Part shown: positions 29,119-56,383 of the stretch, piece by piece | Numbering within the stretch: position 1 is the first letter of the stretch | Layout: each line of letters starts with the position of its first letter | Source: Chloroflexota bacterium | Lineage (GTDB): Bacteria > Chloroflexota > Limnocylindria > P2-11E | DNA: 60,804 nt | Direction: 5' to 3' | NCBI GenBank assembly: GCA_005879975.1 | Contig: VBIL01000002.1 | Coordinates: 1-60,804 of the forward strand | The notes under the pieces: model-generated | The model's database searches: none | Seen by the model: the letters and a program-made list of their open reading frames with translations, nothing else | Told to the model about the DNA's origin: nothing | Program-made: the position numbers and the translations under genes

Positions 29119-29189
29119 TGGGGCGTGGCCAAGTGGTAAGGCGGCGGACTTTGGATCCGCTATCCCAGGTTCGAATCCTGGCGCCCCAG
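29119..29189 (+). tRNA. tRNA-Gln (anticodon UUG)
   Basis: Full cloverleaf: acceptor UGGGGCG/CGCCCCA (U1-A72, as in E. coli tRNA-Gln), D arm GCCAAGUGGUAAGGC, anticodon arm GCGGA-CUUUGGA-UCCGC, and T arm CCAGG-UUCGAAU-CCUGG. CCA is not encoded. Confidence 0.9.
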
Positions 29190-29203
29190 CCTGACCGGTC
29201 GAA

Positions 29204-55165: not shown

Positions 55166-55187
55166 TACCGTAAACTCACTCGCGCGA

Positions 55188-55222
55188 TCCCTGGTAGCTC
55201 AGCGGTAGAGCAGGCGGCTCAT
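55188..55222 (+). tRNA. 5' half of a tRNA with anticodon-loop CUCAU (Met/Ile2-like), interrupted by a group I intron; 3' half not found apart from AACC at 55433-55436
   Basis: Has U8-A9, D stem GCUC/GAGC, A14, G18G19 and anticodon-stem strand GGCGG followed by CUCAU. The acceptor strand UCCCUGG starts with an unusual U1. No matching CCAGGGA strand or T arm is found downstream. Confidence 0.6.
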
Positions 55223-55432
55223 GGTTAAAGGGCAGCCCCTTGGGGAAACTCAGGGGTGTCACTGGGTGAACTGTCGGGAAACCTAAAGCGCGCAAGCGCC
55301 ATGGCAATCCGCAGCCAAGCCCGAGGGAACGCCTCGGGAAGGTTCAGAGACTATGCGCCCGGCGCCTAAAGCCCGAAGGGGCCATGGCGAAGAGATAGTC
55401 CGTGCCCGGGGGTCCTATTGACACGGCGCTAG
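55223..55432 (+). ncRNA. Group I intron (IC3, Azoarcus/cyanobacterial tRNA-intron type), about 210 nt
   Basis: All core helices P2-P9 can be drawn (see finding). The core strings GGGAAACCUAAAGCG, CAUGGCAAUCCGCAGCCAAGC and GAAGGUUCAGAGACUAU...AGAGAUAGUCC match remembered tRNA-intron cores. GNRA loops GAAA and GCAA are present. Confidence 0.8.
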
Positions 55433-55453
55433 AACCTATGTTCTATCGCCCTC

Positions 55454-56383
55454 ATGCTCGTGTGCCAGCAATGTGGTGCGGAATTTCCTGTCGTGCTCGT
55501 GCTCCGGGGAAAGCCGCGCGATCTTCGCGGAAGAAAACACTGTGTCGATTGCCGCCCCTACCGCGAGCTTGGACGGCCGCGGAAACCGGTAATCAGAGCG
55601 GCGAAGGCCCTGATTTGCGCGGCCTGCGGCAAGGCATTCCCGGCGAAGCAGCTCGTCGATGGCAAGATGCACTCGCTCTATCGCCGCCGGTTTTGTCTGG
55701 ACTGTTCACCGTTTGGCGCACACAACACGTCCAAGACCCCTTCCGGCCTTCGTTCGACCGAGGAACGAGACCACGTTCGTCGCGAACGCCGGCGAGAGTC
55801 CTTTAGGCGATCTCTTCACAAACGCAGGCGTAAGCGGAAGCGTGACCTCGTTGAGATGTATGGCGGCCGGTGCGTCGACTGTGGGTATTCGACTTGCGTC
55901 GAAGCACTCCAATTCCATCACCGCGATCCCTCGACCAAAGACTTCCGACTTGGGGAATTCAACGGCTCCCTGGCGCGGCTTTTGAAGGAGGCCGAGAAAT
56001 GTGATCTCGTCTGCGCGAACTGCCACCAGCTCAGACACGCAATGGAGGCAAAGGCGACCAGCGCTCCCGTCGTCCGGCTCCGGCGGGAGACGAAGCTGCG
56101 CGCGATCGGTCTGTTCGGCGGGGTCTGCCCTGGGTGCGGAGGCAGCTATCCACCCGCGGTCCTCCAATTCCATCACCGCGATCCCGCTGCCAAGGAGTTC
56201 GCGATCTCTACCGATGGGATTTACCGGCGATGGGAGAAGATCGCGGGCGAGCTCGCGAAGTGCGTGATGCTTTGCGCGAATTGCCACGCCGAGACCCACG
56301 CCGGGTTACGTGAGCTTCCCAGCGACGCGACGTGTGCGTCCCAGCAGGACGAGGTCATCCTGGCCGCGTCCGGAGTGGCCTAG
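55454..56383 (+). CDS. Tandem zinc-ribbon / tandem HNH nuclease-like protein (309 aa)
   Basis: Two CxxC...CxDC units are followed by a K/R linker and then two HNH units: GGRCVDCG..FHHRDPSTKDF..KCDLVCANCHQLRH and GGVCPGCG..FHHRDPAAKEF..KCVMLCANCHAETH. Confidence 0.75.
   Translation: MLVCQQCGAEFPVVLVLRGKPRDLRGRKHCVDCRPYRELGRPRKPVIRAAKALICAACGKAFPAKQLVDGKMHSLYRRRFCLDCSPFGAHNTSKTPSGLRSTEERDHVRRERRRESFRRSLHKRRRKRKRDLVEMYGGRCVDCGYSTCVEALQFHHRDPSTKDFRLGEFNGSLARLLKEAEKCDLVCANCHQLRHAMEAKATSAPVVRLRRETKLRAIGLFGGVCPGCGGSYPPAVLQFHHRDPAAKEFAISTDGIYRRWEKIAGELAKCVMLCANCHAETHAGLRELPSDATCASQQDEVILAASGVA

Follow-up and report, generated by a model that had tools for sequence, protein, structure and literature searches.

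A probable remnant of a tRNA-Asn-type gene with a group I intron, joined to the upstream region of an HNH endonuclease gene in a Chloroflexota contig

The DNA considered here, called the window, comprises positions 1 to 60,804 of contig VBIL01000002.1 (assembly GCA_005879975.1) from a Chloroflexota bacterium belonging to Limnocylindria, a class of that phylum. On its forward strand, from 55188 to 55412, lie the 5' half of a tRNA gene and most of a compact group I intron, and a gene for a free-standing HNH-family endonuclease follows. The gene order in related loci (designated by L numbers below) is a membrane protein gene on the minus strand, the RNA locus, the HNH gene where present, and genes for a MaoC-type hydratase, an acyl-CoA dehydrogenase and an HpcH-type lyase, and this synteny is the same for all allele types. 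An earlier note, made from the sequence alone, had taken the RNA locus for a tRNA(CAU)-like gene interrupted by an Azoarcus-like intron and complete through its 3' splice junction. We consider it very probable, instead, that 55188-55412 is the decayed remnant of an intron-containing tRNA-Asn-type gene. The features on which the discussion draws are as follows.

55171..55176, + strand: candidate -10 element TAAACT of the tRNA promoter, putative in function, within the conserved upstream block ..ATACCGTAAAMT..
55188..55219, + strand: tRNA 5' exon as far as U33, with a tRNA-Asn-type body (from the sequence and from ARAGORN -i on 14 intact relatives)
55220..55223, + strand: CAUG, extra in alignments with canonical alleles (..CU, GU, CGACG GCAGCC..); the 'CAU anticodon' of the earlier note falls here
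55224..55237, + strand: rest of P1, with GU 55224-55225, the L1 loop UAAAGG 55226-55231 and the guide GCAGCC 55232-55237
55237..55400, + strand: group I catalytic core, with P2 and its GAAA loop, P3, P4, P5, P5a, P6, P7 and P8 (Rfam RF00028 and RNAalifold)
55349..55354 and 55395..55400, + strand: P7, GACUAU with AUAGUC, part of the catalytic core
55405..55412, + strand: remnant of the P9 5' strand (CCCGGGG, about 55405-55411) and the deletion junction (three-way alignment)
55418..55445, + strand: HNH upstream region, with TTGACA 55418-55423 and the perfect palindrome TAGAAC-CTAT-GTTCTA (TAGAACCTATGTTCTA) 55430-55445
55454..56383, + strand: free-standing endonuclease gene of 309 aa, an intact open reading frame (ORF) matching PHROG 2255 'HNH endonuclease' (E 3.8e-63)

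The 5' exon does read as a normal tRNA 5' half up to U33, as had been noticed earlier. The acceptor strand UCCCUGG (55188-55194) is followed by UA (U8-A9), a D arm at 55197-55211 (GCUC/AGCGGUA/GAGC), A26, the anticodon-stem 5' strand GGCGG (55213-55217), and C32 and U33. The upstream block ATACCGTAAAMT is kept before the tRNA in the window, in L001, in L002 and in the upstream flanks of other relatives; a strict scan for a sigma-70 promoter gave no match there. Judged by their sequence, the exons belong to a tRNA-Asn-like body and not to tRNA(CAU). U1 is present at 55188, and its partner A72, like G73, is deleted in the window yet found in every intact relative (UCC....GGA G); G73 we take to be a criterion for tRNA-Asn. 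The U1-A72 pair is, in bacteria, essentially confined to tRNA-Asn and tRNA-Gln (PMC1635274), which explains the 'unusual U' at the start of the acceptor strand that had been flagged as an oddity and is real. As to the 3' side, the exon of intact relatives begins G↓UAACC (the arrow marks the splice site) in 112 of 112 parsed loci, never G↓AACC, which together with the Asn-like body overturns the tRNA(CAU) assignment. An intron of the Azoarcus type would call for a 5' exon ending in CAU, a U.G wobble and a G before AA, while relatives with the window's junction read ..ACG↓UAACC, and in intact relatives of that junction type we found no guide sequence that pairs with CAU. A broader reading as tRNA(CAU/CGU/CCU...), with exons CUNN and UAA, seems unlikely: it needs A, G or C at position -1 and differing amino-acid identities at one orthologous locus. 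The window itself does not present the anticodon GUU in a 7-nt loop, having CU-CAUG-GU and no 3' exon.

Loss of the 3' end is best seen in a three-way alignment of the window with L001 and L002. The window runs alongside them as far as about 55412 and rejoins them at GGTCCTATTGACA; between these points it skips 94 columns (268-361), which in the relatives hold the P9 3' strand and G↓UAACCGCC AGGUC GGAGGUUCGAGUCCUCC CCAGGGA G. Gone from the window, then, are the P9 loop and 3' strand with the terminal omega-G, the 3' splice site together with the 3' exon UAACCGCC..CCAGGGAG behind it, and the spacer. P9 in the relatives is CCCGAGG-GAAA-CCUCGGG, of which only the 5' strand is retained, and their 3' exon, G↓UAACCGCC AGGUC GGAGG UUCGAGU CCUCC CCAGGGA G, completes the anticodon arm and adds the variable loop, T arm and acceptor strand. 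Beyond it, a spacer that is not conserved leads to the conserved block GGTCCTATTGACAC...TAGAACCTATGTTCTA, which the HNH start codon follows. The deletion junction falls in a run of G, which suggests that short stretches of microhomology may have been involved.

Several searches agree with this loss. A complete split tRNA is seen in L001, L002 and L123, the last of which has an HNH protein 98% identical to that of the window and flanks 94-98% identical; with ARAGORN -i, each of 14 relatives yields a split tRNA, and at the window's locus neither this intron mode, the check suggested in the earlier note, nor the default mode calls any tRNA. Rfam tRNA models and default ARAGORN likewise returned nothing on the region. 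Allowing up to three mismatches, no T arm was matched in the 60.8 kb, and a search of the window for the acceptor complement CCAGGGA gave chance matches only or none. Downstream, only 24 nt separate the HNH stop codon from the MaoC-type gene, leaving no room for a tRNA 3' half. We also considered an ORF inside the intron, as a P9 insertion with the 3' exon after it, and rejected it: the 24-nt gap between HNH and MaoC holds no tRNA sequence, and the 3' exon of the relatives precedes HNH. That the element might be a dead fragment had been foreseen in the earlier note itself, and with about 94 nt gone this is what we take it to be.

L141 carries a second, independent deletion allele; on its metagenome contig, WNGB01139551.1, the site lies some 200 nt downstream from the match to the core pattern used in our scans. 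There the P9 hairpin CCCGCGGGAAACCGCG joins the HNH ORF (..tctaagATGCTATTGGTCTGCGAAACATGCGG) directly, and the 3' exon, spacer and operator are gone.

What remains upstream of the deletion is a real group I core, P1 through P8. The Rfam group I model RF00028 matches 55210-55410 with 50.0 bits, exactly the gathering score of 50 (E-value 9.4e-10 over the whole window, 2.3e-11 in a local search), and it scores 54.7-91 bits on 16 relatives. An RNAalifold consensus of 58 aligned sequences, the window first and then 57 relatives, contains the anticodon stem, P2, P3, P4, P5, P5a, P6, both parts of P8, and P9, with compensatory double changes at 24 of its 55 pairs. These fall at several pairs each in P2, P5a, P6, P8 and P9 and at one pair in P3; variation in P4 is one-sided, and P5 and P7 are invariant and hence uninformative on covariation. 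The P2-P8 helices drawn earlier from the letters alone were thus correct, those of P2, P5a, P6 and P8 being directly backed by compensatory changes, while P7 as drawn is in accord with the core and, invariant as it is, neither supported nor contradicted by the alignment. In activity the remnant could at most still perform guanosine-dependent 5' cleavage; self-splicing is a predicted trait of the class only.

Intact relatives offer a plausible course of events for the gene from which the remnant would derive. Their transcript would be a pre-tRNA whose anticodon loop is interrupted by a compact IC3-like ribozyme, some 200-215 nt long, which comprises P1-P9 and has P2 and P9 capped by GAAA. Canonical alleles would be spliced after CUGU, with a U35.G wobble in P1, and after the G before UAA, and the predicted product, with the loop CUGUUAA, would be tRNA-Asn(GUU) of the Asn.4Ug class. 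In the window, a deletion of about 94 nt between runs of G would have removed everything from the P9 loop and 3' strand through the 3' splice site and the whole 3' exon to the spacer, fusing the ribozyme core to the promoter/operator of the downstream HNH gene; the locus can then give rise to no tRNA. The rewritten 5' junction of the window's lineage, CU-CAUG-GU..., is common to many intact relatives.

The class itself has been described. In the Williams (2020) preprint (bioRxiv 10.1101/2020.01.27.920355), the number of classes of intron-split bacterial tRNA rises from 4 to 21, with 5292 genes across phyla, and Asn.4Ug is among them, represented in the seed alignment by Pam37.Asn.4Ug. As described there, the Asn.4Ug intron interrupts a tRNA-Asn body after position 4 of the anticodon loop (CUGU↓), its 3' exon UAA follows G, and its guide GCAG pairs with CUGU; this fit is exact for canonical relatives at the window's own locus (L014, L002 and about 50 more). 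The Pam37 seed sequence is 63% identical to the window copy, which differs in having no 3' splice site or 3' exon, in the four nucleotides added after U33 and before G34, and in an endonuclease gene that stands beyond the tRNA on its downstream side and not within the intron. We conclude that the intron is of an already described class, that its wider family, mostly Asn.4Ug, is widespread and occurs in Chloroflexota (Limnocylindria) too, and that the window copy is a truncated, non-functional remnant of this known class: a tRNA pseudogene with most of its ribozyme. The label 'Azoarcus-like' in the earlier note was fair: over 183 aligned nt the tRNA-Ile2 intron of Azoarcus olearius, as given in the Williams seed alignment, matches the window's intron at 66% identity, and its core segments all come in the same linear order. 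The Azoarcus Ile(CAU) intron ('Ile2.5Ug') is similarly compact at about 200 nt, likewise bears GAAA loops on both P2 and P9, and has in common with the window the strings ..GGGAAACCUAA.., ..GGCAA..CCAAGC.., ..GAAGGU..AGAGACUA.. and ..AUAGUCC... It differs in splicing after CAU (position 5) with a 3' exon AA, as against the 3' exon UAA and Asn body of the window's relatives. The Azoarcus intron is of subgroup IC3, of which the window intron is a candidate member.

Could the locus nonetheless hold a complete split gene for tRNA(CAU), interrupted as in Azoarcus Ile2? Its 5' exon would then end in CAU, P9 would occupy 55401-55425, and the omega-G at 55432 would be followed by a 3' exon that starts AACC. 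CUCAU does stand at 55218-55222, AACC directly follows G55432, and the intron is 66% identical to that of Azoarcus. Yet the 'exon' after G55432 extends for only 4 nt, neither CCAGGGA nor a T arm follows downstream, and the stretch from about 55413 on is the HNH upstream region, a conserved promoter/operator which in 83 loci stands downstream of a complete tRNA. The proposed P9 (CGUG/CACG) is a chance reading within it, G55432 lies inside the promoter/operator region rather than at the end of an intron, and the AACC thought to rebuild the anticodon loop is part of the palindrome TAGAACCTATGTTCTA at 55430-55445; in the relatives the base before AACC is U, not G, and their genuine P9 and 3' exon are absent from the window, as are the 3' splice site and the whole 3' exon needed for a complete gene. 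Alignment to relatives thus refutes this model, and we give it hardly any credence. Even less would we credit trans-splicing to a 3' half (...CCUCGGGG..G↓UAACCGCC..CCAGGGAG) from some other place in the genome. In its favour, the 5' exon, P1 and the catalytic core show no damage; against it, the P9 3' strand and omega-G that are missing form part of the ribozyme, the 60.8 kb contain no 3' half, and every relative is contiguous.

Two other possibilities are improbable without being so far-fetched. The remnant might have been co-opted as a ribozyme leader of the HNH mRNA, with read-through from the tRNA promoter and 5' cleavage or folding controlling expression, for which GIR1 upstream of a homing-endonuclease mRNA and the cyclic di-GMP (c-di-GMP)-dependent group I ribozyme are analogues. 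The deletion sets the core 6 nt from the HNH -35 box without a spacer, L141 fuses P9 directly to the HNH start codon, and the block upstream of the tRNA is conserved; against this, such fusions occur in only 2 of about 135 loci, each different, all other loci keep a complete tRNA and a separate operator, and the fused form carries no sign of selection, so that we think this very unlikely. The somewhat larger, still small, chance is that the deletion is an artefact of assembly or consensus and that the organism carries an intact gene. The junction does fall in a G-rich stretch with short repeats (CCCGGGGG), and close relatives are intact, L123 with its nearly identical HNH gene among them. A clean loss of 94 nt of unique sequence is atypical of collapse, since no long repeat flanks it, and the independent natural deletion of the same region in L141 tells us that such alleles occur.

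There are a few points that weigh against the reading we prefer, a decayed tRNA-Asn-type gene. An assembly error at the G run is conceivable, if improbable as just said, and a compensating tRNA-Asn gene may lie elsewhere in the genome, beyond the 60.8 kb considered here. The RF00028 score of the window sits right on the threshold. In the window's sub-lineage, that of 'CA type' junctions, a U(-1).G wobble, an omega-G and a 7-nt loop cannot all be had at once from any choice of splice sites. Finally, the target specificity of the HNH protein, its control by LexA and its homing are things that we infer.

The HNH protein encoded downstream has several CxxC pairs near its N-terminus and two tandem HH..N..CANCH motifs (..CANCHQLRH.. 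and ..CANCHAETH..), that is, an internal duplication. Besides PHROG 2255 it matches PHROG 3106 and other 'HNH endonuclease' families, and it has 998 homologues in metagenomes; no Pfam family matched at E<=0.01, and no sequence match was found in the PDB. The L001 HNH protein is 79% identical to that of the window. Upstream of the gene, 83 of the 124 loci whose sequence extends far enough downstream have GAAC-N4-GTTC in this position, in the arrangement TTGAC-N10-11-TAGAAC-N4-GTTCTA followed by 4-10 nt to the start codon (for example L001 3958-3985 and L123 1552-1581), and this is kept across HNH proteins 40-98% identical, including those with no more than 40-50% identity. The strict sigma-70 scan gave no promoter here either. 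The palindrome at 55430-55445 is the only such site in the window. GAAC-N4-GTTC is the LexA box of Gram-positive-type and Chloroflexi SOS regulons; the palindrome may be a LexA/SOS-like operator, and the endonuclease may be inducible by DNA damage.

The HNH gene is an insertion polymorphism. In 15 alleles the tRNA is followed directly by MaoC and in more than 60 the order is tRNA-HNH-MaoC; syntenic alleles without HNH include L014, L031, L130, L143, L164, L175, L199 and L208 among others, with at most about 60 nt from tRNA to MaoC, and L014, a metagenome-assembled genome of 'Candidatus Limnocylindria', is 94-95% identical in amino-acid sequence to the window in three flanking proteins. HNH accompanies nearly all alleles with a variant 5' junction and about half of the canonical ones, and all 15 direct tRNA-MaoC alleles are canonical. 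The window's HNH cluster holds both alleles with a junction insert and alleles without one, the latter with a different anticodon stem, and hence the correlation of HNH clade with junction type is not simple. In other phyla, a shorter related HNH ORF was seen within the P1 loop of the intron, just upstream of the guide GCAGC (L147, L138, L157, L185, L209, L240), and introns of 540-630 nt in L006, L009, L058 and L067 also contain an HNH ORF. In L147, ..CANCH.. is encoded just before the guide sequence. The occurrence of related HNH ORFs both intron-encoded and free-standing means that the same endonuclease family occurs in both forms.

These observations invite comparison with 'collaborative homing', of which cyanophage psbA/F-CphI is one case. 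The term denotes a free-standing endonuclease beside an ORF-less group I intron, as with T4 mobE/I-TevIII (PMC2790892). Similarly, the window's intron is ORF-less with an HNH-family gene directly downstream of the interrupted gene, HNH is present or absent at one and the same locus, and in other phyla, as in L147, introns of this family encode related HNH domains within their P1 loops. The differences are that the setting here is a bacterial chromosome and a tRNA gene as opposed to a phage protein gene, and that the gene has tandem HNH motifs and a conserved SOS-box-like palindrome. Comparison may also be made with I-Ssp6803I, likewise an endonuclease tied to a bacterial tRNA group I intron with anticodon-loop DNA as the expected target; it is encoded inside its intron, serves a different tRNA and belongs to another protein family, being PD-(D/E)XK-like, not HNH. 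We infer that the HNH protein is a homing endonuclease travelling with the intron by collaborative homing, expressed from its SOS-box-like operator.

The 5' junction of the window raises a separate question. It aligns as an insertion of CAUG between U33 and G34, and GU 55224-55225 is homologous to the anticodon G34 U35 of canonical alleles. A metagenome scan supplied 120 further loci, the 112 parsed for exon junctions being those cited above; in all of them the 3' exon begins with UAA preceded by G, while the 5' side is CUGU, canonical for Asn, in about half. The other 5' sides are CUCA (38 loci and the window), CUCG (12), CUCC (9), CUGG (2), CUUC (2) and CUUG (1), with the same Asn-type body and syntenic locus as in canonical alleles. 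Relative to canonical L014 (CU-GU-CGACG-GCAGCC), the variants amount to inserts of 1-10 nt between U33 and G34, which end in G in 22 of 22 distinct non-canonical junctions (G, UG, CAUG, CGUG, CACG, CCGUG and so on), and the inserted alleles retain GU, the 5-nt L1 loop and the guide sequence. An alternative P1 register is available to them, G31-C, C32-G, U33.G and N34-N', the last being Watson-Crick in all 22 distinct junctions with three types of pair (C-G 17, U-A 3, G-C 2); in the window C55220 pairs with G55230. The P1 that had been drawn as GCU↓C with GGGC at 55230-55233, and flagged as an oddity, is this very register, and it is real in that it covaries in the relatives. There are thus two candidate P1 wobbles in the window, U33 (55219) with G55231 in the register that covaries and U55225 with G55232, the homologue of the canonical site. 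The window and L123 have CAUG and G, respectively, at the junction despite flanks that are 94-98% identical, and the homologous site was seen to be hypervariable in L001, L129, L132, L128, L123, L178 and others.

How would intact alleles of the window's type be spliced? No canonical placement of the splice sites gives them GUU. Exons, intron and junction are nevertheless kept between lineages whose spacers no longer align, and variant alleles show compensatory changes among themselves (acceptor C5-G68 replaced by U5-A68; T-stem G49-C65 replaced by C49-G65, in L145), so that the variants look selected and not decaying. The 3' exon is lost from 2 of about 70 variant alleles and from no canonical one among about 50, a weak sign that the variant lineages can dispense with the tRNA at this locus. 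A tRNA-Thr reading, with the 5' splice site after U33 and a 3' exon NGUAA, fits the P1 and P10 registers; we do not adopt it, as the would-be omega base is A or U in 11 of the 22 distinct junctions and the retained U1-A72 and G73 conflict with it. A 5-nt loop made of CU and UAA is a possible reading that best fits the pattern of conservation and yields no usable anticodon. Removal of the insert by the same ribozyme, as a 'mini-intron', is a distant prospect, and no P10-like pairing was found in its support.

A bolder proposal, to which we assign a low though not negligible likelihood, is that the short, lineage-specific inserts are no scars and have been selected in an arms race that sets the tRNA-Asn gene against the adjoining SOS-inducible HNH gene, in other words in a LexA-controlled chromosomal 'collaborative homing' system with a dual-register intron. 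If so, the insert might give the carrier allele immunity to its own endonuclease, the target of which would be the GCGG-CUGU anticodon-loop DNA; the second, covarying U33.G register of P1 might remove the insert or re-route splicing; and a tRNA-like product would stay under selection, as the acceptor and T-stem compensatory changes in inserted lineages might reflect.

For the window itself, very little significance attaches to the decayed gene; the adjoining SOS-box-like HNH gene and the hypervariable junction are the more interesting parts. The locus offers a natural series, consisting of canonical alleles, alleles with or without HNH, rewritten 5' junctions and two independent 3' deletions, in which the joint movement of a free-standing endonuclease and an ORF-less intron through bacterial chromosomes can be studied. 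Since the junction variants break the usual U(-1) and omega-G rules yet look conserved, they also pose a concrete question about splicing.

As to distribution, a scan of a genome collection with the core pattern gave at least 120 loci, in Patescibacteria/Saccharibacteria, Planctomycetota, Gammaproteobacteria, Omnitrophota and Chloroflexota. For most of them the call is tRNA-Asn(GUU), the intron separating U35 from U36 (CUGU↓...G↓UAA); a number of calls are ambiguous. The suggestion in the earlier note that a host of this kind would be new is outdated in view of these loci and of the 21 classes across phyla listed in Williams (2020). In the literature on tRNA-Asn introns in Chloroflexi or Patescibacteria, that preprint was the only relevant item found. 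This class of tRNA-Asn intron is abundant in soil Chloroflexota (Limnocylindria) and many other phyla, and standard tRNA finders miss or misname the split tRNA-Asn, so that tRNA-Asn may look 'missing', being under-annotated, in such genomes. ARAGORN in intron mode often reports tRNA-Thr, in which case the terminal G of the intron is read as anticodon base 35, before U36; across L001-L122, the default mode misses the split tRNAs, and the intron mode frequently says tRNA-Thr, Tyr or Met, not Asn. The only intact tRNA that ARAGORN finds in the 60.8-kb window is tRNA-Gln(UUG) at 29119-29191, an ordinary gene that likewise begins with U1. The core pattern also caught tRNA(CAU) genes with CUCAU↓...G↓AA introns in Isosphaeraceae/Tundrisphaera of the Planctomycetota (L027, L015, L036, L072, L078, L080) and initiator tRNA-fMet genes (CGCGGGG...) with introns in Patescibacteria (L057 and L099, Saccharibacteria/Paceibacterota).

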